A DNA stretch of 64,000 bases from Bacteriovoracaceae bacterium. Its GTDB lineage: Bacteria > Bdellovibrionota > Bacteriovoracia > Bacteriovoracales > Bacteriovoracaceae. How positions within the stretch are numbered: the first letter of the stretch is position 1; every line of letters begins with the position of its first letter. Both the position numbers and the translations under genes were made by a program. Below are positions 1 to 22,221 of the stretch, piece after piece. Under the pieces are notes generated by a model that was given only the letters and a program-made list of their open reading frames with translations, was not told the origin of the DNA and ran no database searches. The stretch spans positions 192,001 to 256,000 of the forward strand of contig JBLWTJ010000001.1 of the NCBI GenBank assembly GCA_048270185.1, written 5' to 3'.

Positions 1-829
1 CGATGGAAAGGTTAGGCTACAGATTAGAACGATTGAGTCTTATTCATTTGATGAGAAGTTTAGAAATCTACTTGATCTTGATTATTTCAAGTCCATTCAA
101 TTCATCTCTTATACAGAACAAGATCGCTTATCGATGAACTCTGGTAGGAGTAAACTTATCTTTGCTGTTGGTGAAGTTAATTATAATCAGTACTATGAGT
201 TAGAATTTACTAACACAAAAGATTTTACCATAAAAAGAAAGGGAAGAGCTCTTCAGTTACATAAATCTGATATTGCAACTGTTCGCTCAACTCGTGATGG
301 TGACTTTACTGATGAATTTATGATTACAAGGCAACAAGAGAGAAATAAACTTGCCTTTAAGTTTTCTCATTTAAGAAGAACTCTTCGCTTTGAAAGTGAT
401 TGGGAAGATCCACTTGCTTCAATCTTAGGTGTATTCAAAGAGGGAAATAGTTACTCGATTTATATTGAAGGACGTTATAATATTCATCTTCTAAAAACAG
501 ATGGAAATACAATATTAAGTCACTCCGTGACATCAATTAATCGTGAATCAAGTTTTCCTGGTGGTAATTTTTCTCAGTTATTTCAATTAGGTCAGCTTAA
601 CTCGACAACAGGCTTAATCTATTCTGATATGCAAATGTTATTTGGTGATAGTATTCACCTACTTACAAGTACTGATGGGCTTATTAGTAAAAAACTTAAG
701 TATAATCTTGCGATACCTAATGACTGTGCACTTCTTGGCCACTCACAGATTAAGTTTGAACAAGAAGTAAGGCTACATTGTTTAGGGCCTGGCAAGTTAA
801 CGTCAGTTCATTCGATAAAGGTTGATTAA
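1..829 (+). CDS. Hypothetical protein, 5'-truncated by the window edge
   Basis: The frame of ORF 134..829 is open back to position 2 (DGKVRLQIRTIES...), so the gene probably starts before the window. No recognisable motif. Confidence 0.7.
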   Translation, partial: DGKVRLQIRTIESYSFDEKFRNLLDLDYFKSIQFISYTEQDRLSMNSGRSKLIFAVGEVNYNQYYELEFTNTKDFTIKRKGRALQLHKSDIATVRSTRDGDFTDEFMITRQQERNKLAFKFSHLRRTLRFESDWEDPLASILGVFKEGNSYSIYIEGRYNIHLLKTDGNTILSHSVTSINRESSFPGGNFSQLFQLGQLNSTTGLIYSDMQMLFGDSIHLLTSTDGLISKKLKYNLAIPNDCALLGHSQIKFEQEVRLHCLGPGKLTSVHSIKVD

Positions 830-1632
830 TTGGTAAATGGAAAAAAGAGTGTTGAAACAGAATAGATTTGACACTCTTTTGAGCTACCTTCAGCCTGATC
901 AAATTCATCAGCAAAGCTTTCTATGAAATCAAGTATCTTCTGTCTTGCTTTTGGTAAATCTTCTCTTTTAACATTAATTAGAAAGTGTTCTAATAAACGG
1001 TTCTCTTTTGGGAGATAGTAGCTATCTGTCGACAATTCACAAATTTCGCGATGTAGAGGGATAAATTGTGATAATTCTAATTTATACTTTGGTGAATATG
1101 ATTCATTAAGATAAATTTTAGATTTTTTGATATCGACAATACCTGAGTTTTTCATCTGCTCAATTATCGTAGGATAGCCCTCACTCGACTGATATTTAAA
1201 TTGCTCATCTGAAATATCTTTTAGACTCTCAAAGTCGCTCCATTTTAGCATCTCTCGTAAGAGTGCCATTTCCCATTTAAATTCAACCTGGCGATCTTGT
1301 TTTTCAACTTCTTGAGTACGTTTTTCGACGATGGCCTTAAATGTTTCGTTATCACCTTTTGAACTCTTCTTGGCCTGAATTAAGGCCATAAAGAAATCGG
1401 CCTCTTTTTGAGTTAATTCAAGATTTTTAATGAGTTTCTTAGTTAGTGAAGGTCCTGGATGTCTTTGACCTTTAAGGATCATTGTTAGACCTGAGACACT
1501 CGATATACCGAGCTCCTTGGCCCACTGGCCAAAAGTGTACTTTCTATCCTGTGCTTTTCTGGCAGCAAATATATCTTCCAGATAGAGACGGTAGTCAATG
1601 TAGCTGAATAGGTCTAAGCCTCTAATATCCAT
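826..1632 (-). CDS. TIGR02147/DUF4423-type HTH protein (putative regulator)
   Basis: N-terminal DYRLYL...KYTFGQWAKELGISSVSGLTMILKGQRH, then FFMALI, and C-terminal FIESFADEF...IYSVSTLFFPFT, as recalled for this family. Confidence 0.85.
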   Translation of the reverse strand: MDIRGLDLFSYIDYRLYLEDIFAARKAQDRKYTFGQWAKELGISSVSGLTMILKGQRHPGPSLTKKLIKNLELTQKEADFFMALIQAKKSSKGDNETFKAIVEKRTQEVEKQDRQVEFKWEMALLREMLKWSDFESLKDISDEQFKYQSSEGYPTIIEQMKNSGIVDIKKSKIYLNESYSPKYKLELSQFIPLHREICELSTDSYYLPKENRLLEHFLINVKREDLPKARQKILDFIESFADEFDQAEGSSKECQIYSVSTLFFPFTN

Positions 1633-1807
1633 GACATACGTATCGACTACTTTTTTGAATTATTAATTATTTTCACAAATTTTTTGAAAATATTACATAT
1701 GTTAAGTAGATATTATTGAGGAATTTGTTCATAAAGATATTACACACATAGTTGAGCTAATTACACAATTATAGGATAAATACTTATAACTTTCATTAGG
1801 ATTATTT

Positions 1808-2305
1808 ATGCTTAAAATTATCTTCATCTCTATCATTACTGCATTCATTTCCCTTAATTCACAGGCCCTGCTTGTTAATGATGTAACACCATTTACTGGT
1901 GGGAAGAAATACGACTTCACTAAGAAGACAGGATGGGGTGCTAAGACTGGTTGGGGAGCTCGCGAAATTGAAGATCGTGTTAAGCAAATTATTAAAAGAG
2001 ATTATAGTGATCAGTGTTTTGGAGAAAGTTCATATCGTTATATGATACCAACTCAAAGTATTAATATTAACTTCTATGATGTACCAGCTCTGAATAAGAG
2101 AATCTATAAGGAATTGAGTCCACCAGAAGAAAATGAGAGTGATGTTCTCATGCTTAATATTCTTATTTCAAATGATTCAAAGTTTAAGTATCTTTCAAGC
2201 TTTGAAAAATATACGATTAAAATTCGTTATGATGATGTTGCTGACGATATCATAGTTGAATACTTAGATGATCTTGATCGCAATTATATGTCTAATTGCT
2301 ATTAG
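1808..2305 (+). CDS. Exported hypothetical protein with a KTGWGA tandem duplication
   Basis: Signal peptide ending SQA; SD-like AGGA upstream. Confidence 0.75.
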   Translation: MLKIIFISIITAFISLNSQALLVNDVTPFTGGKKYDFTKKTGWGAKTGWGAREIEDRVKQIIKRDYSDQCFGESSYRYMIPTQSININFYDVPALNKRIYKELSPPEENESDVLMLNILISNDSKFKYLSSFEKYTIKIRYDDVADDIIVEYLDDLDRNYMSNCY

Positions 2306-3151
2306 TTAGAGCCTAAAGCTCACCCCGGCACCGATGAGAACTCCTCCTATTGAGTCAACAACATCGGTGCTAAGCTCATCCATTGCACTCGATGACATTC
2401 CAATTAAGCCCGCTTGTCCGTAGAAGCCAATACGAGAAAAGGGTGCAATTCTTAAGCGGCCACCAATATCATAACCCCAAGCCGCACCCGCTGATTTTTC
2501 ACTATAGTTACTCTGTTCAAAGTCACCTGTTAGGATAAGGCCACCATAGGCTTCAAGGCTAAAGCTTGTGCGATTAATTAAACGGTATTGATATTGTAGT
2601 TCACCGTAGATACTTCTAATGCTACTAAATGAACTAGAGCCAAATAAGTAGCCAAGAGAAAACTTAAAGCCGTGGCGGCCTTTTGGGTCTCTGTGCTCTA
2701 TTGAGAGATCAACTCGGTTCAAGCTTGGTGCATCTTCATTTGCTTGGGCAATATTGAAGTCTTGCCATTCACTTCCTGCAGAAAAAATAGAGTAATCCAT
2801 TGAGAAATAGCTATTCTCTCTTAATTTCTGCGCATCATTCTTAAATATTGTTTCAACATCGTGGTTGGTGACTTCAGGCGTATGCTCAAGTTTTGAGCCA
2901 GATAAAGTGAAGGTAATATCGTCGGCCTTTATGTAGGCAATTTTACCTGAAACAACAAGAGGTACAATAGTCCCTTTTTTAAGACTATTATCGCCAACTT
3001 TTAACTTTCTTCCGCTTCTTATAAATCCAATTGGCGCAGTAAGCTCAACATCAGCATAGACAATTGTCTGTCTCGACTTTGAGATGGCATATCGATAGGC
3101 GTATGAATTTAAATTGATAAAAGCAAAAATAAATACTAAAAGTTTTCTCAT
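2306..3151 (-). CDS. Outer-membrane beta-barrel protein with N-terminal SH3-like domain
   Basis: Signal peptide, amphipathic beta strands, C-terminal GAGVSFRL barrel signal. Confidence 0.7.
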   Translation of the reverse strand: MRKLLVFIFAFINLNSYAYRYAISKSRQTIVYADVELTAPIGFIRSGRKLKVGDNSLKKGTIVPLVVSGKIAYIKADDITFTLSGSKLEHTPEVTNHDVETIFKNDAQKLRENSYFSMDYSIFSAGSEWQDFNIAQANEDAPSLNRVDLSIEHRDPKGRHGFKFSLGYLFGSSSFSSIRSIYGELQYQYRLINRTSFSLEAYGGLILTGDFEQSNYSEKSAGAAWGYDIGGRLRIAPFSRIGFYGQAGLIGMSSSAMDELSTDVVDSIGGVLIGAGVSFRL

Positions 3152-3204
3152 ATATCTATTATAATCAAAATAGAATTTTTGACTAGAATAGTTTAGGGTT
3201 TATT

Positions 3205-4503
3205 ATGAGATTTCCAGGCAAGAGAAGATCAAAACATTATTTCCCAGTTAGTGCAAAAGGAAGACTTTCTTTTGAAACTGACTTCACTCAAAAAGAGAAT
3301 GTCTACATTGTCGGAATTGATCAGTTGCTGGTTGATATTGAAATCGATGCTCCAGCTGAGCTTCTTTCTCAATATGGCCTAAAGCCTGGTGAATCCTATA
3401 TTTTAGATGATGACAAAATCGAGGCCCTTTATCAGAAATGTGTTATGGAGAATCGTATTCTAGGTCAATATGCTGGTGGTGCCGTAGGCAATACTCTTCA
3501 TAATTACTCGGTTTTATCTGATGATCAATCCTTTGCTCTAGGAACTATTTGTGAAACGATCAAAGTAGGGGATTACGCTTTCAAGTATATCTGTAGTACT
3601 TCTTCTAAAGTTGACTTCAGTTACCTTCAACCTTGTAAAGGAAATATGGCCCGTGCCATGTGTTTAATCACTCCTGACAAAGAAAGAACATTTGCCATTG
3701 GTAAAGGTATTATGAATCAGTTAAATGAGGACTTTGTTCCTGCTGATCTTATAAAGAAGTCTAGTGCGCTTTTAATTACAGCATTTCTATTAAGAGATAA
3801 GAGTGCTCCTCTTTATAAGGCCACGATGAAGGCCGTTAAAGTCGCTTGTGAAAATGATGTACCAGTGGTTTTTGCACTTGGAACGAGCTCTCTTATTGAG
3901 AGTGATCCGCTATTCTTTAAAGAATTTATTCGTGAAAACGTTAATGTCCTCGCTATGAATCGCGATGAGGCCCGGGCCTTAATTGGAATTGATGATCCAC
4001 TCTTAGTCGCTAAGGAAGTTCTTGATCTAACAGATTTAGTTCTTGTCACAGACGGTGAAAAAGGTCTTTATATGGGCTCTTGGGCCTGTCGAACGAAGGC
4101 ACGTGAGACAAAGGATACGATTCACTCAAAATCAATTGAAAACTATAATGAATATGAATACTCACGTTCTCAGTTAAAAGTAGACTGTGTTGAGCCGATG
4201 AAAGTTTACTCGCATATTAATCCATTTATGGGTGGACCTGAAAATATTGAAAATACTAATGGGGCAGGAGATGCTGCTTTAGCTGCTATTCTTCATGATA
4301 TTGCGGCCAATGTCTATCATCAAAAACTTCTTCCACATTCAATTAAACATGATGGAAAGTATCTTTCATATTCTTCCATTCACCAACTTTGTAAGTATGC
4401 CAATCGCACAAGTTATGAAGTTCTTAAGCAGAAGTCTCCAAGGCTCTCTCATAATCTACCGGTTAAGGAACAAAGTTTAGAAGAAAGCTATTGGTCAATG
4501 TAA
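3205..4503 (+). CDS. gsk: Inosine/guanosine kinase
   Basis: N-terminus MRFPGKRRSKHYFPV, PfkB motif NTNGAGD and C-terminal LEESYW all match enterobacterial Gsk. Confidence 0.93.
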   Translation: MRFPGKRRSKHYFPVSAKGRLSFETDFTQKENVYIVGIDQLLVDIEIDAPAELLSQYGLKPGESYILDDDKIEALYQKCVMENRILGQYAGGAVGNTLHNYSVLSDDQSFALGTICETIKVGDYAFKYICSTSSKVDFSYLQPCKGNMARAMCLITPDKERTFAIGKGIMNQLNEDFVPADLIKKSSALLITAFLLRDKSAPLYKATMKAVKVACENDVPVVFALGTSSLIESDPLFFKEFIRENVNVLAMNRDEARALIGIDDPLLVAKEVLDLTDLVLVTDGEKGLYMGSWACRTKARETKDTIHSKSIENYNEYEYSRSQLKVDCVEPMKVYSHINPFMGGPENIENTNGAGDAALAAILHDIAANVYHQKLLPHSIKHDGKYLSYSSIHQLCKYANRTSYEVLKQKSPRLSHNLPVKEQSLEESYWSM

Positions 4504-4512
4504 GATCAATTT

Positions 4513-5190
4513 CTATGGAAAGAGCTTCTTTCTGATATTTTCTGGGGCCCTTGTGATTGAGCGGCCTACAACCAGATAGCTCGCACCGTTGTCAATAGCA
4601 TCTTGAGGTGTCATAACCCTTACCTGGTCATCACTGCTATCTCCTGTCAGGCGGATTCCTGGCGTTACTTTTGTGAAAGCTACATTAGTGCGATTTTCAA
4701 AGGTCTTAATAATGTCAAGATCTGCTCCTGAACAAACAAGTCCACTTACTCCTGATTTATTAATCATTGTTAGAATTTCTTCTAATGCCAGATTTTTTTG
4801 TCTTCCCCAAATTGATTGAATTTCTTCTTCACTGTGAGATGTTAAAAGCGTTACCGCAAGGAGAGTACACTCAGGGATATAAGTTTGTGCGCTCTCTAGG
4901 GCCTGGGCCATCATTGTTGTTCCACCAGTTGCATGAATCGTTAGAAACTTTATTGGCAGGCCTTTTAATCCTTTAATCGCTTTTGCAACCGTTGTTGGAA
5001 TATCGTGTAATTTTAAATCGAGAAATATCTCAACTTGATAATTTTGAGCGAGGTCACGAATAAGATCATTACCGTATTGTAGGTAGAGCTCAAGCCCTAC
5101 CTTGATAAGTTTAATTTCAGGGTACTCTGACAGAAGCTTTGTAACTTCAACTCTATCCATTCCATCGAGAGCGACAAATGTCTTATTCAC
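4513..5190 (-). CDS. pyrF: Orotidine-5'-phosphate decarboxylase
   Basis: FLDLKLHDIPTTV, VTPGIR, DDQVR, LVVGRSIT motifs. Confidence 0.96.
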   Translation of the reverse strand: MNKTFVALDGMDRVEVTKLLSEYPEIKLIKVGLELYLQYGNDLIRDLAQNYQVEIFLDLKLHDIPTTVAKAIKGLKGLPIKFLTIHATGGTTMMAQALESAQTYIPECTLLAVTLLTSHSEEEIQSIWGRQKNLALEEILTMINKSGVSGLVCSGADLDIIKTFENRTNVAFTKVTPGIRLTGDSSDDQVRVMTPQDAIDNGASYLVVGRSITRAPENIRKKLFP

Positions 5191-8100
5191 TTAGCATCTC
5201 CTGTAGACTTACTGGCCCAAGTTCACTTGTAATGGTGTAAGTTAATGCCTCAACAACAGCATTGATATTTTCAAGTCTTGTAAAGCATGGAACTGCATAT
5301 TGAATGGAAGCATTTCGAATAAATTCACCATCCGACATTGATCGTCCCTGATTTAGAGGTGTATTTAAAACCATGGCCATATCTTCGTCTTTAATTGCAT
5401 CAAGCATTGATGGATTGTCTCCATTGCTTGATAGCTTGTCGACAATTGTAGCATCCACATAACACTTCTCTTTCAAGAATCTAAATGTACCCTTTGTAGC
5501 ATAGAATTTAAATCCATTGGCAGCAAGTTTCTTGAGGTTTGCAATCAATCTTTCATCGTCTTTATTTGATAGTGATATTAGAATTGATTTCTTATCGAGA
5601 AGATCAGGATAATTTCCAAGGTATGATTTGAGCATGGCCTTATCGAGATTCTTGTCAATTCCTAGTGTTTCACCAGTTGATCTCATCTTTGGACCTAAGA
5701 TGATAGAATCCTGTACGAAGCGGTCAAATGGGAAAGTTGATTGCTTTATAACTTTATATGAGCTCTTTAGTTCCTTAATTGTTTCAATTTCTTCACCAAG
5801 AAGTGCTCTTGTGGCAAGGCCTGCAAGATTGATATCATAGGCCTTTGATAAAAATGGTATCGTTCGCGATCCTCTTGGATTGGCCTCAATACAGTATATA
5901 TCTTCGCCTTTTAGAGCAAATTGAAAGTTAATAGGACCTGTGATTTCCATATTACCTGCCATTTCACTAGCAAGTTGTCTCATCTTTTCAATGATCTCCT
6001 TACTTGCTATTTTTGGAGGTGATATCATTCCCGAGTCACCAGAGTGAACACCTGCGTATTCGATATGTTCACAAATTGTAAAAACAGTATTTCCCTTCTT
6101 ATCTCGAATTAAATCGACATCATATTCAAGAGCATTTGAGATATAGTTTTCTACTTGAAATGTAATCGAATTTTCGTGCAGAGATTTTAAAATTTCTTGT
6201 GGTAGATTCTCGATATCTTCTTGTGATTCAAAGATAAACATACTTTCACCACCGATAACGTAGCTTGGTCTAATGATAACAGGAAAACCAATCTCGGTTA
6301 TTGCATTAATTAAGTTCTTATGGCCTCTTACTTCCTTTGAAGTAGTGTGCGCTAGAGCAACACCTTTGGTTAATTCATCAAATCGCTTCCTGTCTTCAAC
6401 TGCATCAAGTAAATCAAGGCTTGGCCCTAAAAAGTTAAATTTTTGATGCTTACTTCTAAATGGTGCTTCTAGGTGAGCGCGAATATTGATTCCCGTCTGA
6501 CCACTAAATGAAGTGATGACATGCTCTGGGTTTTCAAACGAGAGGATTTCAAATAAATCTTCAGAAAATAGTGGCGTGAGATAGAGTCTGTCCGAACTAT
6601 CGTAGTCAGTTGAAACGGTTTCAGGGTTAGAGTTTAGAAGAATTGACTTAACTCCAACTTCTGCAAGTGTTTTACAGCTTTTTACACAAGAGTAATCAAA
6701 CTCAATTCCTTGTCCAATTCTGTTAGGTCCTGAGCCAAAGATGGCACAGCTTTCTTCTTTAATTGGTTCGACGTCACTATATTGAGTATAAGTCGAATAG
6801 AAGTATGGGGTCAGGGCGTTGAACTCACCGGAACAAGTATCAACGGCCTTAAAGACTGGTCTAATTTTATTTTTAATTCTTAGATCAAGAACGTTTTCAA
6901 TACTTGATTTCGAAAGTAGTGCTAGATACTTATCCGAGAAACCTTCTCGCTTTAAATCAAAGAGTGATTCAGGATTATTAATTATTGTGTTATCGGCCTT
7001 AAGTTGATCTTCATAATCTTTGAAGACAACCATTTGTTCGATAAACCAAGGAGTGATGGCGCTAATCTCATGAATATCCTTTGCTGAAATTCCTGCTCTT
7101 AGTCCCTCTAGTGCCGTAAGAAGTGAGAGTTCTCTTTGATTTTTTAGACGCTGTTTTAGATAGTCGGCCGTCATCGGATACGGTGTTGTCTTTAGCTGTT
7201 CAAGGCTTGGAATCTCAAGTCCTTGCTCTGTTGCCCTTAAGGCCTTCATGAAGGCTTCGTTAAAACTTCCTCCAAGGGCCAAGACTTCACCAACAGATCT
7301 CATTTGAGGGCCTAGGGTTTGCGAGCTTGATGGAAATTTATTAAATGGAAAGATTGGAATCTTCACGGCAACATAGTCTAGTGTTGGCTCAAAGGCCACT
7401 GGTGAGATTCTTGTAATATCATTTAGAATTTCAAAAAGAGTAAGTCCTACCGCAAGTCCAGCTGAAATCTTAGCAATGGGATATCCTGTTGCTTTTGATG
7501 CTAGTGCTGATGAACGCGATACACGTGGATTCATTTCAATTACTACAATATCATCTTCATCCTTAGGATTTACTGCAAATTGAACATTTGCTCCACCTGC
7601 CACAACGTTCATATGCTTGGCAATTGTTAGAGACATGGTTCTGAGATTTTGGTAGCAGCGATCTGAAATTGTTTGGGCCGGTGCTACTGTAATTGAATCA
7701 CCTGTGTGAATTCCACATGGATCGACGTTTTCAATAGAGCAGATAACAACTCCACATCGATTCTTATCAACCATAACCTCAAGTTCAAGTTCCTTCCAAC
7801 CAAGAAGTGATTTTTCCATCGTAATAGGAAATTTAATATCACTTGAAGAAAGTGTCTCTCTTAATTCATCTGTATTATGAACTAAGGCGGCACCCTTGCC
7901 CCCAAGAGCAAAATCACGTCTAATGATAAGTGGAAATTTTACTTTTGAGTCTGCTAGTTCAATTGCATCCTTAAAACTTTGGGCCGTAAATCTCTTTCCT
8001 GATTTATATCCCAGCTTATCGAGTTCTTCAGCAAAGAGTTTTCGGTCTTCAGTTTTCTCAATTGTGTCGATATTGGCACCAAGTAGTGCTACATTGTGAT

Positions 8101-9631
8101 CTTTTAGGAAATTTTCTTTTTCCAAGTCAATACACATATTAAGGGCCGTTTGACCGCCCATAGTAGAGAGTACGGCATCAACTCTTTCTTTTTTTATTAT
8201 TTTCTTAATCGTCTCTTTAGTAATTGGCTCTATATAAGTTCGGTAACTCATTTCCTTATCAGTCATGATTGTTGCGGGGTTTGAGTTTAGAAGAACGACT
8301 TCAAAGCCTAATTCTCTAAGGGATTTCAGTGCTTGTGTCCCACTATAATCAAACTCTGATGCTTGACCAATTTTTATGGGCCCTGAGCCTATTAAAAGAA
8401 TTTTCTTATAAGGAGAGTTTAATTCTCCTTGATGATATTCAGGAATTGCATGAATATCTTCTTTTTTGATTATTTCATTTTTTCCATTTAAGTAATCACC
8501 AATTTCACTAAAAAAGATAAGGGCGTCTTTTGGTCCAGGATTGGCCTCTGGGTGAAATTGTACACTTCGAACTCTTGAGTCAAAGCTTCTAAGTCCTTCT
8601 AGAGAGCGATCAAATAGGGAAGTGAATTCACAAAATAATTCTATTCCAAATTCATTCTCAAGTGCTTTTGTCTTAAAAGATTGTGCATCAATGGCATAGC
8701 CGTGATTCTGACTTGTAATAAGAAGTTCTTTTGTATGATGTGAGAAAACAGGGTGATTGGCCCCTCTTTGTCCAAATGGCAGTTTAATTGTCTCCATCCC
8801 ACAAGCGAGTCCAATTAATTGGTGGCCAAGACAGATTCCACGAATTGGAATATCTGTTTTAAGAAGATCCTTTACTTGTGCAATTTGATCCTTGTGCTCT
8901 TTTGGATCTCCTGGCCCATTTGATAAAAAGACCATCCTTGGTCTAAGTCCTACAACTTCCTGTGCTGACGTATTGTATGGAACAACCACTGTTGGCATTC
9001 CAAGATCTTTTATATAATTAACAATTGCCTTCTTTATCCCATAGTCAATAATGACAATTGGGTTTTCACCTTTTGTGATAACTTGTTTTTCTTTTACTGA
9101 TACTCGTGCTAGATCGTTGCACTCTAGTTGCGTGTTAGAAAAATCTGGTGCAGATTCGCTTGCTGTTATTAGACAGCGATGATCCTTTGACTTACAAGAC
9201 AGATACTTTGTTAATTGCCTTGTATCGATATCACTAATGAGTGGTATTTCACAATTTTCTAGAAAATTATTATATGAGAAATTTCTTGCGATTAAGGTTT
9301 TGGCAACGGGACCTTCATTATTAAGTCTTTGGCCTACCCTTTCGTCATATTCATAATTACCAACATGAGCAGTTGTAAAGATAATGTGCTGGCCAAGAAA
9401 TGATGGATCTGTAGCCGTTTCTTGGTAGCCGGCCATTCCTGTTGTAAATGCAGCTTCACCAAGTATGCCGCCAGTCAGTCTTGGATCATCTTTTGAAATA
9501 TTGATATAGGCTTTGAATTTAGTTTGGTCGGGAAAATGAAGAAAAATAGGAGTTTGTTTAAGAGATTTTTTAAAAAGGAGTTCTTGAGACGTGGAAGTTG
9601 TAACTTCTGTATCAAACTTTGCTTTCTTCAT
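5183..9631 (-). CDS. carAB: Carbamoyl-phosphate synthase, fused small (CarA) and large (CarB) subunits
   Basis: Glutaminase motifs SNGPGDP, GICLGHQ, QFHPE followed in frame by GSGPIKIGQASEFDYSG, IEMNPRVSRSS, GSGPNRIGQGIEFDY and an MGS domain. Start placed at ATG 9631 (SD-like AAGGA upstream). Confidence 0.95.
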   Translation of the reverse strand: MKKAKFDTEVTTSTSQELLFKKSLKQTPIFLHFPDQTKFKAYINISKDDPRLTGGILGEAAFTTGMAGYQETATDPSFLGQHIIFTTAHVGNYEYDERVGQRLNNEGPVAKTLIARNFSYNNFLENCEIPLISDIDTRQLTKYLSCKSKDHRCLITASESAPDFSNTQLECNDLARVSVKEKQVITKGENPIVIIDYGIKKAIVNYIKDLGMPTVVVPYNTSAQEVVGLRPRMVFLSNGPGDPKEHKDQIAQVKDLLKTDIPIRGICLGHQLIGLACGMETIKLPFGQRGANHPVFSHHTKELLITSQNHGYAIDAQSFKTKALENEFGIELFCEFTSLFDRSLEGLRSFDSRVRSVQFHPEANPGPKDALIFFSEIGDYLNGKNEIIKKEDIHAIPEYHQGELNSPYKKILLIGSGPIKIGQASEFDYSGTQALKSLRELGFEVVLLNSNPATIMTDKEMSYRTYIEPITKETIKKIIKKERVDAVLSTMGGQTALNMCIDLEKENFLKDHNVALLGANIDTIEKTEDRKLFAEELDKLGYKSGKRFTAQSFKDAIELADSKVKFPLIIRRDFALGGKGAALVHNTDELRETLSSSDIKFPITMEKSLLGWKELELEVMVDKNRCGVVICSIENVDPCGIHTGDSITVAPAQTISDRCYQNLRTMSLTIAKHMNVVAGGANVQFAVNPKDEDDIVVIEMNPRVSRSSALASKATGYPIAKISAGLAVGLTLFEILNDITRISPVAFEPTLDYVAVKIPIFPFNKFPSSSQTLGPQMRSVGEVLALGGSFNEAFMKALRATEQGLEIPSLEQLKTTPYPMTADYLKQRLKNQRELSLLTALEGLRAGISAKDIHEISAITPWFIEQMVVFKDYEDQLKADNTIINNPESLFDLKREGFSDKYLALLSKSSIENVLDLRIKNKIRPVFKAVDTCSGEFNALTPYFYSTYTQYSDVEPIKEESCAIFGSGPNRIGQGIEFDYSCVKSCKTLAEVGVKSILLNSNPETVSTDYDSSDRLYLTPLFSEDLFEILSFENPEHVITSFSGQTGINIRAHLEAPFRSKHQKFNFLGPSLDLLDAVEDRKRFDELTKGVALAHTTSKEVRGHKNLINAITEIGFPVIIRPSYVIGGESMFIFESQEDIENLPQEILKSLHENSITFQVENYISNALEYDVDLIRDKKGNTVFTICEHIEYAGVHSGDSGMISPPKIASKEIIEKMRQLASEMAGNMEITGPINFQFALKGEDIYCIEANPRGSRTIPFLSKAYDINLAGLATRALLGEEIETIKELKSSYKVIKQSTFPFDRFVQDSIILGPKMRSTGETLGIDKNLDKAMLKSYLGNYPDLLDKKSILISLSNKDDERLIANLKKLAANGFKFYATKGTFRFLKEKCYVDATIVDKLSSNGDNPSMLDAIKDEDMAMVLNTPLNQGRSMSDGEFIRNASIQYAVPCFTRLENINAVVEALTYTITSELGPVSLQEMLSE

Positions 9632-10604
9632 GCGTGGAATTTCCTTGTGTATTAAATATTTTATTATATCGTGCGCCGATATTATCGTCGCCATTAGTAA
9701 TCATTGCTTCAATAATGGCCATGCGGACATAGATTGAATTTTCAACTTGTTTATGTGCTTTCCAAAGGTTTGAGTTAACAATAGCACTATCAACTTCAAT
9801 CCCAATATTTGCCGGGCCTGGGTGAAAAATTGGGATTTCATATCCTAATTTCTTAATGCGATCTATGTTAATTCCCCAGTCACTATTATAGCTTGTCATA
9901 TCAAATTGATGGCCGTGTCTTTCAGTTTGGATTCTGAGAAGATAAATAGCATCACTTTCTCTTAGACATTGGTCGAGATCAGTCATGACCTTAATATGAT
10001 TTGGAAGATTTTTAGGAATAAATTCCTTTGGTCCACATAAAGTAATTTCAATTCCAAACATTGGCAGTAGATCAATAAGTGAATGAGTTACACGCGAGTG
10101 AGTGCAATCTCCAACGATAGCAATCTTCTTACCTTTTAGATCTCCTGGCCTTTTTACTTTAAATTCTTCCATTAATGTATAGAGATCAAGAAGGGCCTGT
10201 GTCGGGTGTTGATTTGATCCATCCCCACCGTTTATCATCTTAATTGGTGGCCTTTCTTTAAATTCAGTAAGTAGCCCTGAATCCTTTGTTCGCACAATAC
10301 AAATATCAATGCCTTGATAATTCAATGTTAGAAGTGTTTGTTCAAGAGATTCACCTTTTTTAAGAGATGATTTCTCAGCGTCAAAATCAATATGAATACC
10401 TTCAAGTTGTTTGATGGCCATCGTAAATGATAATTTTGTTCTAGTTGAATTTTCGAGAAATGATGTTGCTACAGATATTTTGCGTTTTAGAGGAAGTCTT
10501 GCCGGTGAACCAAGTTTTAGTTCCTGAGATCTTTGGAGGAGTTGCTCAACTTGCTCGCGGTTTAAATCTTCTATTCCTTCCAGAATAGATGGAAATCCAT
10601 TCAT
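9612..10604 (-). CDS. pyrB: Aspartate carbamoyltransferase catalytic subunit
   Basis: ENSTRTKLSF, HPTQALLD, RIQTER, HPGP motifs. Confidence 0.96.
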   Translation of the reverse strand: MNGFPSILEGIEDLNREQVEQLLQRSQELKLGSPARLPLKRKISVATSFLENSTRTKLSFTMAIKQLEGIHIDFDAEKSSLKKGESLEQTLLTLNYQGIDICIVRTKDSGLLTEFKERPPIKMINGGDGSNQHPTQALLDLYTLMEEFKVKRPGDLKGKKIAIVGDCTHSRVTHSLIDLLPMFGIEITLCGPKEFIPKNLPNHIKVMTDLDQCLRESDAIYLLRIQTERHGHQFDMTSYNSDWGINIDRIKKLGYEIPIFHPGPANIGIEVDSAIVNSNLWKAHKQVENSIYVRMAIIEAMITNGDDNIGARYNKIFNTQGNSTHEESKV

Positions 10605-10700
10605 GACATTCCAGTAGTGCTGAGATACAATATTTTAAAAAAGTGTATTAAATGCAAGGCATCTTGGCCACCAAAAAGATGACTAAAATGACGACTTTTT

Positions 10701-11750
10701 TTGACAAGACCAAAAGAGACTAAAGTGGCTAATTTTACAGCAAATTTTAAAGAAATTCATAATAAGACTCAGCTTGAGGCCCTAAAGAATGAAATCAAAG
10801 GAAATCTCTTTGAATTCCTTGTTGCTAAAGAGATCTCTAGTATAAATAAGATTGAGGCCAACTTTCATCGCAATCTCAATCCATCTTTACTCGCTATGAT
10901 GCGAGATTATGAACTTTGGTTGAGACAGCATGATCGCAATCTCTTATCTAAGCTTCCAGTCCTGGCCAAAGCCTGTGCTGAAAAAATTAATAATCAATTT
11001 GATTGCCCTTTAACTAATATTACTGTTGTAGGAAAATTAAGTGATCACGATATAAAAAACTTCCTTCATGAAGCTGATATCGTTGTTCAAATGGAATCAA
11101 AGGTTATTCCAATTAGTCTAAAACTTGTAAAGTCTGGTGCTAATATTACAACGAAGTCGGCAGGGGCCAAGAGTATATTTCATAAATACTTCAAAGACTT
11201 TAAAGAAATTGACTTCATTCAGAATACATTAAATGAATATATTGACCAAGAATTTGATCGCTTTGCTCGTGGCCTATATGAAAGGCGAGGACTTGATTAT
11301 AATGGACGTTTTGACTCTCTGTGGACTGAAACTCACTTACCGGGAGAATTAGAAGGCAAGGATCGCGAAGATCTTTACTCTCTTTATCGCTCACTCATAA
11401 AGCACTACCATGATATCTTCACAAAACTCTTAGCGCAGGATCAATCTTTATTTATCAGTAGTATTCTTCCTCTAATGGGACTGGGGAATAAAGATGTTGT
11501 ACAGGGGATTTGTTTTTATAAACATGGGAGCTATGATTTGGATTACTCTCACGTCGTAAACTATACAAAAATGAACGATATTAGAATTTGTGCTCTTAAT
11601 CCTGATATATCTTCTTTTAATATCATCATTGGTGAGGATTCTTTACAGATCCGTGTAAAGCCCATGAATAAATTTAGTGCTCCTTCTTATAAGATTAACT
11701 GTTCGATGAAGTTTGCAAAAGACAATGAAAAAAAGGAAAGAAATGTTTGA
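10701..11750 (+). CDS. PD-(D/E)XK nuclease-like protein resembling HaeIII-family restriction endonucleases
   Basis: KGNLFE..., EADIVV...ISLK and C-terminal LQIRVK...PSYKIN motifs. Start codon uncertain. No methyltransferase nearby. Confidence 0.55.
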   Translation: MTRPKETKVANFTANFKEIHNKTQLEALKNEIKGNLFEFLVAKEISSINKIEANFHRNLNPSLLAMMRDYELWLRQHDRNLLSKLPVLAKACAEKINNQFDCPLTNITVVGKLSDHDIKNFLHEADIVVQMESKVIPISLKLVKSGANITTKSAGAKSIFHKYFKDFKEIDFIQNTLNEYIDQEFDRFARGLYERRGLDYNGRFDSLWTETHLPGELEGKDREDLYSLYRSLIKHYHDIFTKLLAQDQSLFISSILPLMGLGNKDVVQGICFYKHGSYDLDYSHVVNYTKMNDIRICALNPDISSFNIIIGEDSLQIRVKPMNKFSAPSYKINCSMKFAKDNEKKERNV

Positions 11751-12690
11751 TATCGTACTTTGTCAAAGAGACTATAAAGAAATTAGTAGTATAGCTCAAA
11801 ACTTTTTTGAGGTTCTAGAGTTTAGTGGAGATGAGCAGTTAAAGGATCTCTTAAATGCCAAGAAGAAGGTTCTTCTTGTGACGGCCAAGTCTAGTGTTGT
11901 GCCGGATCTCTTTAATCTCTATAATCAAGCAAAAAATGGAAATTGTGAATATTACTATCTCTCTCGTTTAAATCTCAATCTTGATGAATTAGAGTCTTGT
12001 GAGAAATTCTTCCCGGAAGTAAATGATATAAGTGTCTGCGCTGACTACTATAGCGCCAGCGGAGTTTTCTTTATTGATACAATCGATCCCGTTGGAATGC
12101 CTAATTTTAAAAAAGATATCATGCCAATATTAAAGTCTTATGTTGATTTTAAAGAATACAAGGCCGCACTTTTCCTCGATCGCGATGGCGTTTTAAATAT
12201 TGACCATTCCTATGTTCATAAAATTGATGATCTTGAGCTTGTTGATGGTGCATATGATTTTCTTCTTCATGATTTTAATCGTGAACGCATTAAAATTGTT
12301 GTGACAAATCAATCAGGTGTTTCTAAGGGAATGTTTGAATACCAGGAAGTGGAAAATTTCAATGCTGAGTTGAATAAGTGTTTAAGTCATCTCATTGATG
12401 CCTTCTATATTGCTCCTTTTGAATTTACCAAGGGGGTAGGTCAGTACAAGTATCACTCTTTACTTAGAAAGCCGCACCCTGGGATGATCTTCATGGCCTG
12501 CTATGATTTTCCAATTGATCTTTCAACATCATACTTAGTTGGAGATAAGGCCAGTGACGATCTTAATTATGAACTTCTTCAGACTGTTCATTTAAGTGGT
12601 AAGTATGATCTTTCTCGTTGTAAACGAGTTGCTTCAGATTTTGAAGAAGTAATAAAAATTGCCAGCTTATTGCCAAATAAGACAAATTGA
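11743..12690 (+). CDS. gmhB: HAD-IIIA phosphatase (GmhB-like) with an N-terminal extension of about 140 aa
   Basis: FLDRDGVLN, VTNQSG, RKPHPGM, VGDKASD motifs. ATG 11743 overlaps the upstream stop. Confidence 0.8.
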   Translation: MFDIVLCQRDYKEISSIAQNFFEVLEFSGDEQLKDLLNAKKKVLLVTAKSSVVPDLFNLYNQAKNGNCEYYYLSRLNLNLDELESCEKFFPEVNDISVCADYYSASGVFFIDTIDPVGMPNFKKDIMPILKSYVDFKEYKAALFLDRDGVLNIDHSYVHKIDDLELVDGAYDFLLHDFNRERIKIVVTNQSGVSKGMFEYQEVENFNAELNKCLSHLIDAFYIAPFEFTKGVGQYKYHSLLRKPHPGMIFMACYDFPIDLSTSYLVGDKASDDLNYELLQTVHLSGKYDLSRCKRVASDFEEVIKIASLLPNKTN

Positions 12691-12722
12691 GTCAAAATTC
12701 CTCTATGTAAAAGGAATTACAT

Positions 12723-13121
12723 ATGAAAATGAACTTATTGGGCCTATTTGGTCTCTTTACTATATTTACTATACTATATCCAAGCTCGGTCTTTGCACGT
12801 GAGCTTAATTCAAAAGAAATCGAACTTGAGTCTAAGGCGCAGCTCTTAAAGCAACTCAATGAAGAGTATGTTTCGCGCTTTGATATTAAGGATCTGCCTT
12901 TATCAAAGTATCTCTCATTTGTTATCTTAAAAAATGGTTGTGCCCCTTTTTATCAAACGATTGAAGAGATTCGATTAGAAGATGAGAGTTTTCCTGATAA
13001 GAGTGCGCAGCTCGATCAACAATATCATCTTTGTCACAAATCAAATATGGCCTTAAAGGAATTTAATCCTGATGATGTCGATTCTTCTGAGACACTACAG
13101 CGCTTAAGCAATGAGCACTAG
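12723..13121 (+). CDS. Exported hypothetical protein
   Basis: Signal peptide ending VFA; SD AAGGA; two Cys. Confidence 0.7.
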   Translation: MKMNLLGLFGLFTIFTILYPSSVFARELNSKEIELESKAQLLKQLNEEYVSRFDIKDLPLSKYLSFVILKNGCAPFYQTIEEIRLEDESFPDKSAQLDQQYHLCHKSNMALKEFNPDDVDSSETLQRLSNEH

Positions 13122-14076
13122 TTCTGTTAAGTATAAAGTCTATCTGGTTTCAAGTAATAATCCATATGTAAATTTGGCATTTGAAGATCACCTTCTGCGA
13201 ACTCATATTGCAAGCAAGAGTAATGCTCAGATTCTCATTCTTTGGCAGAGTTCTCCTAGTATTGTGATGGGAAAATTTCAAAACCCATGGCTTGAATGTC
13301 AGGTGGGTAAAGTAAATGAACTTGGTATCAATCTCGTTAGACGCCAAAGTGGTGGCGGCTGTGTTTACCACGACCTTGGTAATATGAATTACTCATTTAT
13401 TAGTCCCAAGTCAGATTACAATAAATCTCGTAATGCAGGGATTATTGTCGACGCTCTTAAGTCACTTGGTATAAATGCTTTTGAAAATGAAAGACATGAT
13501 TTAAGGGTTATTCACGATAATATCGACTATAAAATTTCTGGGTGCGCCTTTAAAGAAACAAAGCATAGTGCTCTTCATCATGGAACACTTCTAATTAATG
13601 CTGATACGGCCCTTTTAAATGAACTACTGCGTTCTAAGTTTAAGAGTGAGGCTGCCTTGGGGGTAAAATCTGTGCGCTCAAGTGTAACAAACATACAAAA
13701 GCTATTACCAGAGCTCACAAAGGCCAAGCTAACTTCGGCCATTATTAAGTCATTTTCGCCAGATTGTGAAATAGTTGAGATATTTGAGCAGGATATTTGT
13801 ATGATCGAAGGAATGCTTACTAAAGTTGAAGAGCTTAAAAGTTGGCAATGGATCTTAGGCTCCACTCCTAAATTTTCTCTTAATGTTGATGGGATGGAAC
13901 TTACTATAAAGAATGCCAGGGTTATTGCTGTCGATCCTCAAACAGACGAATCAGAGACTTTGATCAATTTAGTAATCGATAAGAAATTTTATGAGCAAGA
14001 AGAAAATCAACTAGGACAATTAAGCTCCTATCAGTCCGACTTTATAAATAAATGTTATAATATCCTCTATATTTGA
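13111..14076 (+). CDS. lplA: Lipoate-protein ligase A
   Basis: NPYVNLAFED, RRQSGGGCVYHDLGN, KISGCA, HHGTLL, SVRSSV motifs. Confidence 0.93.
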   Translation: MSTSSVKYKVYLVSSNNPYVNLAFEDHLLRTHIASKSNAQILILWQSSPSIVMGKFQNPWLECQVGKVNELGINLVRRQSGGGCVYHDLGNMNYSFISPKSDYNKSRNAGIIVDALKSLGINAFENERHDLRVIHDNIDYKISGCAFKETKHSALHHGTLLINADTALLNELLRSKFKSEAALGVKSVRSSVTNIQKLLPELTKAKLTSAIIKSFSPDCEIVEIFEQDICMIEGMLTKVEELKSWQWILGSTPKFSLNVDGMELTIKNARVIAVDPQTDESETLINLVIDKKFYEQEENQLGQLSSYQSDFINKCYNILYI

Positions 14077-14085
14077 TGATTTAAA

Positions 14086-14445
14086 TTGGGGATGAAAATG
14101 CGCGAACGTATCAATCTTATTATCGATGAAACTCTCATTAGTGAGGGAGAAGCAAGTGATTGTATGTATCTTTTAAAGAAGGGATGCCTGGCCGTCTTTA
14201 AGGAAGTTGATGGTGTTCAAAAGCAGATTGGTACAATCTATGAAGGTGAATTCGTTGGGGAAGTTAGCTTTTTAGATAAGAGAAAGCGTTGTGCATCTGT
14301 TAAGGCCATGGTTGAGAGTGAAGTCGAAGTCTTTGATAGTCAAAAATTTCAAGAATTTATCGATTCAAGACCTAAGTGGCTACAAAGTATGATGCGAACT
14401 CTTGCAGATCGTCTACGTTCAACCAATGATAAGATAAAGGTATAA
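14086..14445 (+). CDS. Stand-alone cyclic-nucleotide-binding domain protein
   Basis: EGE...MY...GEVSFLD..RCASV phosphate-binding cassette; no HTH. The true start may be ATG 14092 or 14098. Confidence 0.88.
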   Translation: MGMKMRERINLIIDETLISEGEASDCMYLLKKGCLAVFKEVDGVQKQIGTIYEGEFVGEVSFLDKRKRCASVKAMVESEVEVFDSQKFQEFIDSRPKWLQSMMRTLADRLRSTNDKIKV

Positions 14446-14446
14446 G

Positions 14447-14806
14447 ATGGCAAATCCAACGACAGTCTTTATTAATGAGGGGCAATACTTAATTCGCGAA
14501 GGGGAAGAAAGTAAGGAAATCTATATTCTTGAAGAGGGAACTCTTGGAGTTTATAAAGTTCGCTCAAGTACGGAAGTTAAAATTGGTTCAATCTTTCAAG
14601 GTGAAATGGTTGGAGAGATGAGCTTCTTTGATAATGAGCCTCGAAGTGCAACGATTAAGGCCGAAACAAATGCCAGACTTCTAGTTATTCCATCTGCAAA
14701 GTTTGAACTCTACTTGAAGAAGCAACCAAAGTGGTTCACTGAGCTTTTAGAGACACTCATAGATCGAATAAGAAAGGCTTCCTCAAGAGTTAGACCTGAA
14801 GTTTAA
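14447..14806 (+). CDS. Stand-alone cyclic-nucleotide-binding domain protein (paralogue of the preceding gene)
   Basis: GEMSFFDNEPRSATI motif; no HTH. Confidence 0.88.
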   Translation: MANPTTVFINEGQYLIREGEESKEIYILEEGTLGVYKVRSSTEVKIGSIFQGEMVGEMSFFDNEPRSATIKAETNARLLVIPSAKFELYLKKQPKWFTELLETLIDRIRKASSRVRPEV

Positions 14807-15357
14807 TTTGAATTTCTAAGTCTTCTAAAATTTTCAAAATCTTCTCTTGTCACCTCATTGTCATCAATTGAGAGATGATTAAGAATTGGCAGCATGGCAA
14901 GGACTCGAGGAATTTCGCGAAAGCTATTCTTATCAAGATTTATACGTTTCAAATTCTTAAGCCATTCAAATTCATTTGGTAATTCATGCAGGTTATTTCC
15001 TTGTAATTCGAGGCCTTCAAGATTTTCTAGCTCACATATCCAATGTGATATCGAATGTAGGTCACAATAAGCAAGTTTTAAATGTTTGAGTTTGGATGGG
15101 CCATTAATTACTAATTCATTGATATTTGTTATTCCACTTAATTTTAAAATTTCTAATTGATTAAGATTAGTCATCTCAAAGCGGCATGCACTTTGTGCAT
15201 TAATACTTAAATTAGTGAGTTTACTAAGGCTTGCAAGATCTCCCGTAATTGTAATCGGGTGCTTTGCCATAATCTCAAGAAGTCTAATCTCAAGATTTAG
15301 GTCTGTGATCTCATTGATATTGAGATGAGTTTGTTTCTTCGTAGGCTTAACTAGCAT
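14803..15357 (-). CDS. Leucine-rich repeat protein
   Basis: LxxLxLxxNxLxxLP repeats, e.g. LEGLELQGNNLHELP and LKRINLDKNSFREIP. Confidence 0.88.
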   Translation of the reverse strand: MLVKPTKKQTHLNINEITDLNLEIRLLEIMAKHPITITGDLASLSKLTNLSINAQSACRFEMTNLNQLEILKLSGITNINELVINGPSKLKHLKLAYCDLHSISHWICELENLEGLELQGNNLHELPNEFEWLKNLKRINLDKNSFREIPRVLAMLPILNHLSIDDNEVTREDFENFRRLRNSN

Positions 15358-15386
15358 ATTCTAATTTTAACACAAATTAGAAATGA

Positions 15387-15731
15387 CTAAAGGTATTGAA
15401 TGAATTTATTATTTTCGTCCACAAGGATCTGCTTTGGATGAATATCTTTCTTATCAGTCATTTGAAAACCAATAATGATAACTTCATGACCTTCATTGAT
15501 AAGATGAGCTGCTGCACCGTTTAAGCAGATTTCTCCTGAACCGCGCTCTCCCTTAATTACATAAGTCTCAAGTCGAGCACCGTTTGTATTTGATACAATA
15601 AGAACTTTTTGTCCTGGCCACAAGTCAACCATCTCTAAGAGCTCTTCATCAATTGTAATTGAGCCAATATAGTTTAGGTCTGCCTGAGTAACACGGGCCT
15701 TGTGAATTTTTGATTGAAGCATTTCGCGCAT
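15387..15731 (-). CDS. panD: Aspartate 1-decarboxylase
   Basis: SKIHKARVT, YIG-SITID autocleavage site, NGARLETY, NGAAA. Confidence 0.96.
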   Translation of the reverse strand: MREMLQSKIHKARVTQADLNYIGSITIDEELLEMVDLWPGQKVLIVSNTNGARLETYVIKGERGSGEICLNGAAAHLINEGHEVIIIGFQMTDKKDIHPKQILVDENNKFIQYL

Positions 15732-15812
15732 ATACGCTTTTTATCAAATAACTTAAGGCCCGCCAACGAAAATTTTTACTAGCGAAACACTTTCATTCTT
15801 AGTCAGTACTTT

Positions 15813-17024
15813 TTATTTGGTTTCAGGTCCTGGAATTCCTAAAAAATAGAGAATTGAGGTCATAGGGCCAAAACTCATATTATTTTGAGCATTTTTACGC
15901 ACAATGTCTTTTGCGTGAAAGGCAATACCGAGTCCTGCTTGAGCGAGCATTGGGAGATCATTTGCTCCATCTCCAATGGCCACAACTTGTTCAAGAGAAA
16001 TTCCTTCTTGCTGAGCAATGAGGTTAACTAAAACGGCCTTTTGTTCAGCATTAACAATTGTCCCTTTTACTTTTCCTGTTAATTCACCGTCTATGATTTC
16101 AAGTTCATTGGCAAAAGCGTAATCGAGGTCTAGTTTCTCTTTTAGGTGATTGGCAAAGTATGTAAATCCCCCTGAGATCAAAGCGACTTTATAACCATAC
16201 TTCTTTACTGTTTTGATAAAGTCTTCTACACCGTCTGTCAGTGGAAGTTTTGCTGCAATGTCAGATAGAGTTGATTCTTTAAGACCTTTTAAGTGGCCGA
16301 CTCTCTCGATTAGAGATTGGTTGAAATCAAGTTCACCGTTCATGGCCCTTTCTGTAATCTCACTGACCTTGGCCCCTATTCCGTGTACATGGGCAAGTTC
16401 ATCGATGACCTCTGCTTGAATGAGAGTTGAATCCATGTCAAAAACGATAAGCCTTTTTGAGCGGCGATAGACATCATCGCGAATGAAGGCAATATCGGTA
16501 CTATGCTCATTGCTAATAGTTAGAAGCTCTGACTTAACTTCATCAAGGCCACTTGGATCTGGCACATCAGTTAAAACTTCAAGGGAATTAAAGCCCTCTT
16601 TTGAAACGTTATCAATACGATAAATATTAATTCCATGATTGGCCAAGGATTGGGCCACATGGGAGATAAAGCCTGCAGAGATTTTCTTTGGTGCAACACA
16701 ATTTAAAATGAAGCTATTATAAGGAGTCTTGTACTTAGTGATCCCTTGAATGATTGAATACTCTAGCCTTAGTCCGAGTTCATGGGCCTCAAATAAGAGG
16801 TCTTTTAGTACTGTTTGATTGCTTGTCTTATCACTACTGATTTTAATAACAAAAGATAGAGATAGAAGATTGTGAGTAATGGCCTGGTTTATATCAGTGA
16901 TATCTGAGTTATTATCATTAATGATCTTCATCAGACGAGCAGTAATTCCTGGCCTATCTTCACCTGATACGGTGATTATTATTTCTTTAAATACTTTAGC
17001 ATTTGTTTGTGAATTATCTTCCAT
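15813..17024 (-). CDS. serB: Phosphoserine phosphatase with ACT domains
   Basis: GEDRPGI ACT motif; FDMDSTLI, SGGF, GDGANDL HAD motifs. Confidence 0.95.
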   Translation of the reverse strand: MEDNSQTNAKVFKEIIITVSGEDRPGITARLMKIINDNNSDITDINQAITHNLLSLSFVIKISSDKTSNQTVLKDLLFEAHELGLRLEYSIIQGITKYKTPYNSFILNCVAPKKISAGFISHVAQSLANHGINIYRIDNVSKEGFNSLEVLTDVPDPSGLDEVKSELLTISNEHSTDIAFIRDDVYRRSKRLIVFDMDSTLIQAEVIDELAHVHGIGAKVSEITERAMNGELDFNQSLIERVGHLKGLKESTLSDIAAKLPLTDGVEDFIKTVKKYGYKVALISGGFTYFANHLKEKLDLDYAFANELEIIDGELTGKVKGTIVNAEQKAVLVNLIAQQEGISLEQVVAIGDGANDLPMLAQAGLGIAFHAKDIVRKNAQNNMSFGPMTSILYFLGIPGPETK

Positions 17025-17035
17025 GAAAATTCCTT

Positions 17036-17686
17036 TTATTTGCGTCTACTCTTTCTAACTTCTGCAATTTTCTTTAGAAGCCCGAAGGTATAGACCATGG
17101 CAGAGAAAATAGAAAATACAAATGAGACATAAATTAAGATTGTTCCTACTAGTGGATAGGAAAAGCCCCACGGTTTATCCCATGCCATAAGCATTGGAAT
17201 GGCCATCATTTGTAATGTAGTTTTCCACTTTCCGAGATTATTAACACTTACCTTCAATCCTTTTTCCATGGCAAGAAGGCGAAGTGCAGTCATATACATT
17301 TCTCTAAGCACAAGGACAATAACGACGATGACATTAATGCGCTCTAGTGATTGGAGTAGAATAAGAGAAGAGACAACTAAGAATTTATCTGCAATCGGAT
17401 CAAGGAAAGATCCAAAAACTGTAACAATATTTCTCTTTCTTGCGATGTATCCATCAAAGAAATCTGTTACTGAAGCAAGGACAAAAGTCCAAGCAGCAAT
17501 ATAGCCGAGTGTTTTAGTCGTTGCTTGAAAAATATTTTCTTCAAATAGACATAGATATAAAGTCAGACAAATAACAGGAATGAGGGCCACCCTGAAAACT
17601 GTTAGCCTATTAGGTAGATTATCAATCTCCCATTCGCTTAAAATTTCTTTTTCTGTGACACTAATTTGATTTTTATTTTCTGACAT
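17036..17686 (-). CDS. pgsA: CDP-diacylglycerol--glycerol-3-phosphate 3-phosphatidyltransferase
   Basis: NLPNRLT, TDFFDGYIAR...GSFLDPIADK, GKWKT motifs. Confidence 0.95.
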   Translation of the reverse strand: MSENKNQISVTEKEILSEWEIDNLPNRLTVFRVALIPVICLTLYLCLFEENIFQATTKTLGYIAAWTFVLASVTDFFDGYIARKRNIVTVFGSFLDPIADKFLVVSSLILLQSLERINVIVVIVLVLREMYMTALRLLAMEKGLKVSVNNLGKWKTTLQMMAIPMLMAWDKPWGFSYPLVGTILIYVSFVFSIFSAMVYTFGLLKKIAEVRKSRRK

Positions 17687-17723
17687 AATTACTCAAAGAA
17701 AGATTTTCCTATTTATTAAACTT

Positions 17724-17751
17724 TAAACCTTACGGCCATAAACGTCTATAA
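17724..17751 (+). promoter_or_regulatory. Possible sigma28 (FliA)-like promoter of the PilZ gene
   Basis: TAAAC-N15-GTCTATAA, same spacing as the other candidates in the window. Confidence 0.4.
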
Positions 17752-17797
17752 TAATTAACATAAATTCTAAAAAACAAAATAAAGGATAAGTAGTCTC

Positions 17798-18517: not shown

Positions 18518-18603
18518 AACCTTTTTATTTTAAAAGGACGCTTTTCAATTGGGAATTAACTTCTTAAAATATAGCTAAATATTTTAAATTAAAAGGATTC
18601 CCA

Positions 18604-19557: not shown

Positions 19558-19586
19558 TACATAGTTTAAAACAAGGAAGTTGAAAA

Positions 19587-20979: not shown

Positions 20980-21138
20980 TTTTTGTATCTTTATTATCTA
21001 ATTTATACACTTCGCATTCTAACATGTTGTAATTATAATAATTATTAGTTTGAACTAATGATAACGCTGGTTGACGTCATTTTATGCGCAATGTAGATGT
21101 TATTTATACGAATTAAAATCAATCTTTTGGAGAGCCTT

Positions 21139-22080: not shown

Positions 22081-22124
22081 GCAAATTACTGGGGAATAAC
22101 CAGGACAACAACACTACGAATATC

Positions 22125-22157: not shown

Positions 22158-22221
22158 GTTCACCTGTCTAAATTGTGAACACTCTCAAACTTATAATTGC
22201 CTAAATTCATAACATTTATTG

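Follow-up and report, generated by a model that had tools for sequence, protein, structure and literature searches.

A MutL protein without the endonuclease motif, DQHA(X)2E(X)4E, requires an outside nickase, as in E. coli, and restriction enzymes are, in general terms, patchily distributed and accompanied by the avoidance of their sites. The way in which the newly made strand is recognised is understood for Dam/MutH, which is described in PMC4390886 as limited to a gammaproteobacterial group; there, Elhai (2015) postulated, for HIP sites, a MutH analogue directed by 5-methylcytosine (5mC) together with a ratchet, no gene being named. Here we describe a candidate system of this kind in the Bacteriovoracaceae, starting from a window of 64,000 nucleotides (G000:C1:192001-256000, that is, part of contig C1 of the genome called G000) in which the palindrome GGCC is strongly over-represented and which encodes an unannotated PD-(D/E)xK nuclease. 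On balance, we favour the reading that this family domesticated a restriction-modification (R-M) pair, formed by this nuclease and a C5 methyltransferase encoded outside the window, into methyl-directed mismatch repair (MMR); that the two genes are jointly behind the GGCC bias, be it through such a repair or in a Vsr-like role, can be held with good confidence. The family counts given below refer to genomes of family f1 (n=151, of which 111 are “good”, with a completeness of 90-100%), which was taken as Bacteriovoracaceae because the named relatives of the G000 methyltransferase (Halobacteriovorax and other Bacteriovoracaceae) belong there.

The first-pass annotation of the window had counted about 30 GGCC in its first 6 kb, against about 3 CCGG and about 4 GCGC, and the recount of positions 1..6000 agrees with it (33, 3 and 4, with 6.7 of each predicted from the base composition). 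GGCC is the top tetramer of that stretch (maximal-order Markov ratio 2.02), its sites being dispersed and forming no repeat array, and GGCT appears only 8 times and AGCC 14 times. As had also been suggested, this diffuse excess continues across the window (1..64000; 288 sites vs 72.7 expected, Markov 2.19), and belongs to a signature that extends over the genome and the family: the G000 genome contains 12,131 GGCC sites (Markov 1.97, z of about 98), ranking first among tetramers, and its most depleted tetramer is AGCC/GGCT (0.58). The depletion of one-mismatch neighbours, proposed as a check in the same annotation, thus holds for GGCT/AGCC, but far less so for GGTC/GACC.

Codon usage indicates which base is affected. 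Among alanine codons preceded by G, GCC represents 6974 of the 7817 GCY (89%), vs 17-30% after other bases, and the synonymous purine preceding a GCC codon is G in 5656 of 6713 cases (odds ratio (OR) 13.8, with 2.4 for the next context), in all 13 codon families. Both biases are one event seen on opposite strands, i.e., a T-to-C bias at the final base of GGCC that is symmetric between the strands. At the inner base, the bias is only mild (GGC makes up 43% of GGY preceding C, vs 12-36% preceding other bases). The bias points to the outer C (GGC5mC) rather than to GGmCC, the methylated form originally proposed for checking. An artefact of codon pairs, amino acid composition or assembly would find some support in the fact that the strongest excess falls in one frame (nnG|GCC, 3.2-fold after synonymous shuffling), yet it is extremely improbable: when the codons of 2,787 open reading frames (ORFs) of G000 were shuffled synonymously within each gene, the excess was kept in all three frames (1.75, 1.80 and 3.20-fold), and the intergenic DNA is enriched as well (Markov 1.79), so the signal neither vanishes after codon correction nor is restricted to one frame, the two outcomes that had been named as fatal to it at the outset. 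Moreover, the bias is mirrored on both strands and in every codon family, has an equal OR at all expression levels and is missing in 20 genomes of other families, while an independent run (X3) has long contigs that agree with the window but for a few differences. The codon-pair and amino acid variant of this explanation is refuted by the shuffling, codon-family and expression-bin results.

The process behind the bias was approached through synonymous changes polarised in triplets of orthologs (259 triplets with 95,736 codon columns; G146 and G015 with G106 as the outgroup, reciprocal best hits above 70% identity only). The rates are approximate, given that the outgroup is close to being saturated (four-fold identity 0.55-0.58). 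Outer-base C>T changes were found in 6/792 cases vs 28/244 in control alanine codons (p 2.5e-13, roughly a 15-fold cut) and the template-strand G>A in 7/687 vs 17/235 (p 3e-6), whereas the loss by transversion was normal (64/792 vs 16/244, p 0.49). In turn, GGCA changed to C more often than in the control (29/240 vs 34/1266) and to T less often (5/240 vs 103/1266), as if GGCT were converted onward quickly, and the unpolarised pairs after G show the same tendency (A/C 122 and A/T 13, with 84 and 395 in the controls); an earlier analysis of 55 genes had led to the same result. The suppression of outer C>T together with a normal transversion loss points to a site-creating T:G repair rather than to selection for sites, and the process creating GGCC sites that had been suspected from the window alone is thereby supported, its behaviour being that of a methylase-linked T:G repair. 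At the inner base, C>T was somewhat lower (20/241 vs 78/369) and transversions were raised (55/241 vs 29/369). In glycine GGN codons before C, the inner-C transversions reach 2.5-4 times the control in both directions, an excess that may be due to mis-polarisation or to real damage at methylase-bound sites.

Selection for methylation sites as a regulatory or replication signal, with no repair bias, is consequently very improbable, since it should suppress every type of loss, and transversion losses occur at the control rate and inner-base losses are frequent. What speaks for it is the dnaA-dnaN spacer, outside the window (G000:C4:175479-176179; 701 bp, 32% GC, at the GC-skew switch), where the oriC of Halobacteriovorax marinus has been predicted (PMC5124646). 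This spacer holds 13 GGCC, more than any other intergenic region of G000, and the density of its sites is the highest in the genome for windows of 300 and 400 bp. Several of them are directly joined to words resembling DnaA boxes, and another 5 are found upstream of dnaA. However, of 14 relatives, only 3 have a significant cluster of this kind (G146, with 16; G013, with 9; and G079, with 7), which makes it lineage-limited, and six spacers from other families have 0-1 GGCC. The cluster may in part reflect a ratchet acting beside DnaA boxes, and local selection may add to it.

The bias has a well-defined range. Among 54 family loci (34 of them chosen via the methyltransferase, and some coming from one genome), the outer-base OR exceeds 2.5 in 48 and is at least 10 in 27, and it lies between 0.4 and 2.4 in 20/20 loci from other families of the phylum (pooled 1.0, 0.9-1.2). 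Three traits share this range and co-occur throughout the family: an orphan C5 methyltransferase, the window nuclease and a motif-less MutL. The methyltransferase (METHYLTRANSFERASE; G000:C1:546351-547538, + strand, outside the window) is the sole PF00145 gene of G000 (241 bits over 1-324), with housekeeping-type neighbours and no adjoining nuclease, and it is full-length, carrying the catalytic PC motif (GGPPCQ) and ENV. It was found in 144/151 family genomes and in 111/111 of the good ones; in a sample of the phylum, it is present in 46/46 family genomes, with matches in 11/154 genomes of other families at only 30-39% identity. For the Bacteriovorax methylome of Marinov et al., the methylation caller is said to give CpG output by default. 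GGC(5mC)G is the only GGCC methylation that falls in CpG (the other strand reading CGGCC), which could explain why 5mC was described there in a “CpGGCC context” (PMC11789641). From this context and the substitution pattern, we infer that the target of the methyltransferase is the last C of GGCC.

Some genes around this methyltransferase and its relatives deserve mention on their own. Most family loci have a gene of 200-280 aa (c3) directly upstream of it (L005:9298-9930 and 25 other loci, not G000), with no Pfam match and, by eye, the look of a degenerate ABC ATPase. G000 also encodes a stand-alone protein of 301 aa (G000:C1:1115708-1116613, - strand), 22-26% identical to the cluster c19, whose members adjoin paralogous methyltransferase copies in L081, L082, L083 and L086 (a true Vsr lies beside the L083 copy); c19 seems to be a mobile R-M family akin to the core methyltransferase. 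In L087 (G049:C66:115000-124500), whose context is phage-like, two genes come after another paralogous methyltransferase, one of 81 aa and a radical-SAM-like one of 470 aa; this may be a DNA hypermodification module.

The window nuclease (10701..11750, + strand, 349 aa) has a HinP1I/MspI-type fold and an intact PD-(D/E)xK catalytic core, with the invariant residues E31-x-K33-G34-x-x-F37-E38, D126 and K141. It is a single-copy core gene, present in 108/111 good family genomes and in 0/154 outside the family, and, although it lies 344 kb from the methyltransferase in G000, the two are adjacent in four genomes, which suggests an R-M ancestry. Its nearest language-model neighbours are HaeIII-type enzymes (PF09556, 0.97), a link given by this search only, and in a global alignment with one PF09556 member the catalytic E, D and K are collinear. 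These features, together with the partner methyltransferase, bring it close to HaeIII-type R-M systems, from which it differs in the lack of any PF09556 match (none in 67 family genomes and none in 116 aligned members), in a methyltransferase variable region that gave no alignment with that of M.HaeIII, in the vertical and mostly unlinked inheritance of both core genes, and in an enriched site with the bias at the outer C. Likewise, the distance between the genes, their presence in 108-111/111 genomes and the lack of site avoidance are not those of a Type II R-M system. The nuclease is a candidate MutH analogue or T:G nickase.

The third element, mutL (G000:C1:1345808-1347475, + strand), is encoded outside the window, as is mutS1 (near G000:C1:1274715, + strand). 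The G000 MutL lacks DQHA, and its C-terminal region scores below the Pfam cut-off; the endonuclease motif is missing in 30/30 family genomes and kept in 19 of 20 other-family genomes (20 of 30 entered the comparison), whereas mutL itself is kept in the 30 family genomes, with invariant N-terminal ATPase residues. MutH (PF02976) was not found in G000 (with a positive E. coli control) and appears in 2/151 family genomes, and Vsr (PF03852) and DUF559 were not found in G000 either, Vsr being present in 5/151. The only family-wide nuclease found to track with the methyltransferase is the window ORF, whole proteomes not having been screened. Outside the family, the MutL motif is degenerate in family f5 at L264 (G154:C53:31660-32170), and low scores for the MutL C-terminal region were also obtained in three other f5 genomes (G161, G249 and G192), possibly another independent motif loss with another nickase.

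How could these three elements generate the bias? In the mechanism that we propose, the core orphan methyltransferase would methylate the last C of GGCC, and the nuclease would nick the unmethylated strand of hemimethylated GGCC under MutS/MutL, in a MutH-like manner, providing the incision that the endonuclease-dead MutL cannot make. Since a T opposite G at the marked position cannot receive the methyl group, the strand carrying it would always look new and be replaced, turning T:G into C:G. This would undo the deamination of 5mC, and a G misinserted opposite the T of GGCT would be fixed too, resulting in a one-way ratchet from GGCT/AGCC to GGCC. The GGCC excess would then be a by-product, with transversions still removing sites freely.

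The same substitution pattern, and the missing Vsr, would be explained equally well by very-short-patch repair only, in which GGC5mC is the mark, the nuclease is a Vsr analogue nicking only T:G in GGCT/GGCC, and the strand choice of general MMR comes from elsewhere; unlinked methyltransferase and Vsr-like genes are indeed known in Caulobacter (PMC12907096). Nevertheless, this explanation leaves aside why the MutL motif was lost in exactly this family, which has no MutH, and the nuclease fold is HinP1I/MspI-like, with Vsr absent among the listed fold matches; we thus regard it as possible, although unlikely. More doubtful is that the ratchet is run by another enzyme (a glycosylase, or else a nuclease that escaped detection, such as that at C1:1115708-1116613), the window nuclease being a conventional restriction enzyme or having an unrelated job. 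In favour of it, three genomes in which no copy of the nuclease was found retain the bias (G141, G040 and G001, 91-95% complete; OR 10.7, 8.0 and 2.5), the bias is weak in three having both genes (G028, 1.6; G018, 1.7; and G069, 2.1), and G000 has, besides the second stand-alone nuclease-like gene, one gene of the UDG family and two HhH-GPD genes. But 3 misses among 111 genomes of such completeness are about what incompleteness predicts (either this or a relic bias would explain those three cases, which give no support), the HhH-GPD genes are, presumably, ordinary Nth and MutY, judging by their motifs, and a single-copy, near-universal gene so far from its methyltransferase is not what would be expected from a conventional restriction enzyme.

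Apart from these six genomes, several points weigh against the domestication of an R-M pair into methyl-directed MMR. The co-occurrence of the three traits across the family is one evolutionary event and not many, and G154, outside the family, likewise has a MutL without the motif. To our knowledge, the C5 enzymes characterised so far for GGCC methylate the inner C, and we know of no GGCC methyltransferase marking the outer one; no close characterised relative of the methyltransferase was found (38.5% at best, on plasmids). The GGCC specificity of this enzyme and of the nuclease is presumed, and the similarity of the latter to the HaeIII profile is insignificant (hhalign probability 2.8%, the HaeIII protein not scoring above its own shuffles). 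In addition, some genomes show a bias at the inner base as well (OR 15.6 in G085 and 3.5-9.6 in loci of the window genus), some events must have been mis-polarised because of the near-saturated outgroup, and the spacing of GGCC is uneven (42 gaps above 1.5 kb on C1 vs 17 expected).

With regard to the known systems, the domesticated pair would work like Dam/MutH plus Dcm/Vsr, but it is a member of neither, as there is no MutH, no Vsr and no GATC excess (Markov 0.89 in the window and 0.98 after codon shuffling, the Dam family not having been searched). The likeness to Dam/MutH (PMC4390886 and PMC12907096) lies in a core orphan methyltransferase for a 4-bp palindrome, in MutS with an endonuclease-less MutL, in a nuclease of restriction-enzyme descent and in a cluster of sites at the predicted origin in some lineages. 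In contrast, the mark here would be 5mC in GGCC instead of 6-methyladenine in GATC, and the nuclease has a HinP1I/MspI/HaeIII-type scaffold and no MutH domain; unlike that of Dam/MutH, this mark deaminates, hence the T-to-C ratchet. Dcm/Vsr and the ScmA/VsrA of Caulobacter also combine an orphan C5 methyltransferase with the suppression of one transition at one position, a depleted T neighbour and an enriched site, so the comparison with Dcm/Vsr made in the first-pass annotation is apt as to methylase-linked behaviour and fails as to the Vsr gene; the site is another one, the bias is far stronger (OR of about 20) and it is coupled with the loss of the MutL motif. The cyanobacterial HIP1 and the GmeC-directed repair model of Elhai (PMC4390886) share the methyltransferase-linked ratchet and the abundant palindrome as a by-product, although the nicking enzyme is hypothetical there, and here there is a candidate gene along with a disarmed MutL. 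One study (PMC5861425) announces in its title a result of selection, whereas transversion losses here are unsuppressed. GGCC gives a clean case of an over-abundant palindrome as a by-product of repair and not of selection, which bears on the HIP1 debate. The chances are about even that this is a second independent origin of methyl-directed MMR, in which a restriction nuclease reading hemimethylated GGC5mC replaced the MutL endonuclease, one enzyme doing the jobs of MutH and Vsr and the mark being also used at the origin in some lineages. A literature search, in which the relevant reviews were not all covered, found nothing on this GGCC repair system. If the reading holds, both the methyltransferase and the nickase should have a new specificity, and clades with the MutL motif lost and MutH missing would be the ones to search. 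Meanwhile, culturable and harmless predators offer a named three-gene candidate for new-strand recognition, and since one of them is prey-independent and has a published methylome, the idea is directly testable.

Within G000, the 123 genes with the strongest codon bias have 1.85 GGCC/kb, vs 3.5-4.1/kb elsewhere, because GCC and G-ending codons are rarer in highly expressed genes, and the GGCC:GGCT OR stays at 21-27 in all six codon-bias bins. The weakness initially noticed at 24076-27461 is therefore real for the sites, but not for the bias, which is undiminished: the two genes at 24076..27503, with high optimal-codon use, have 0.8 and 0.0 sites/kb (G|GCC 2, G|GCT 0), a case of low opportunity and no escape. 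As for the intergenic sites, 180 of 642 lie in terminator-stem-like inverted pairs (e.g., C1:1323, C1:17417 and C1:36400). At window positions 892 and 2480, AGCC corresponds to GGCC in the X3 contigs (a very close strain; for 2480, also in X9), which may mean that turnover at the outer base is still going on in this species. Other genome-wide deviations are the depletion of GTCAA/TTGAC (0.68) and CGAA/TTCG (0.76), the enrichment of CACC/GGTG (1.39) and CAGG/CCTG (1.30), and a codon CGG that is nearly unused. Finally, 19 small contigs of G000 (C6-C8, C10-C12, C14-C16, C18-C20, C23-C28 and C30; 147 kb) contain 7 GGCC and 0 CCGG vs 158 expected of each, GCGC and GATC being about as frequent as expected or more so. 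Their genes, read by eye, suggest a large plasmid or a phage, and include radical-SAM-like clusters as well as a single-stranded DNA-binding protein (SSB) of gammaproteobacterial type; they are probably mis-binned DNA strongly avoiding two sites, or may be a GGCC-avoiding element of the same host.

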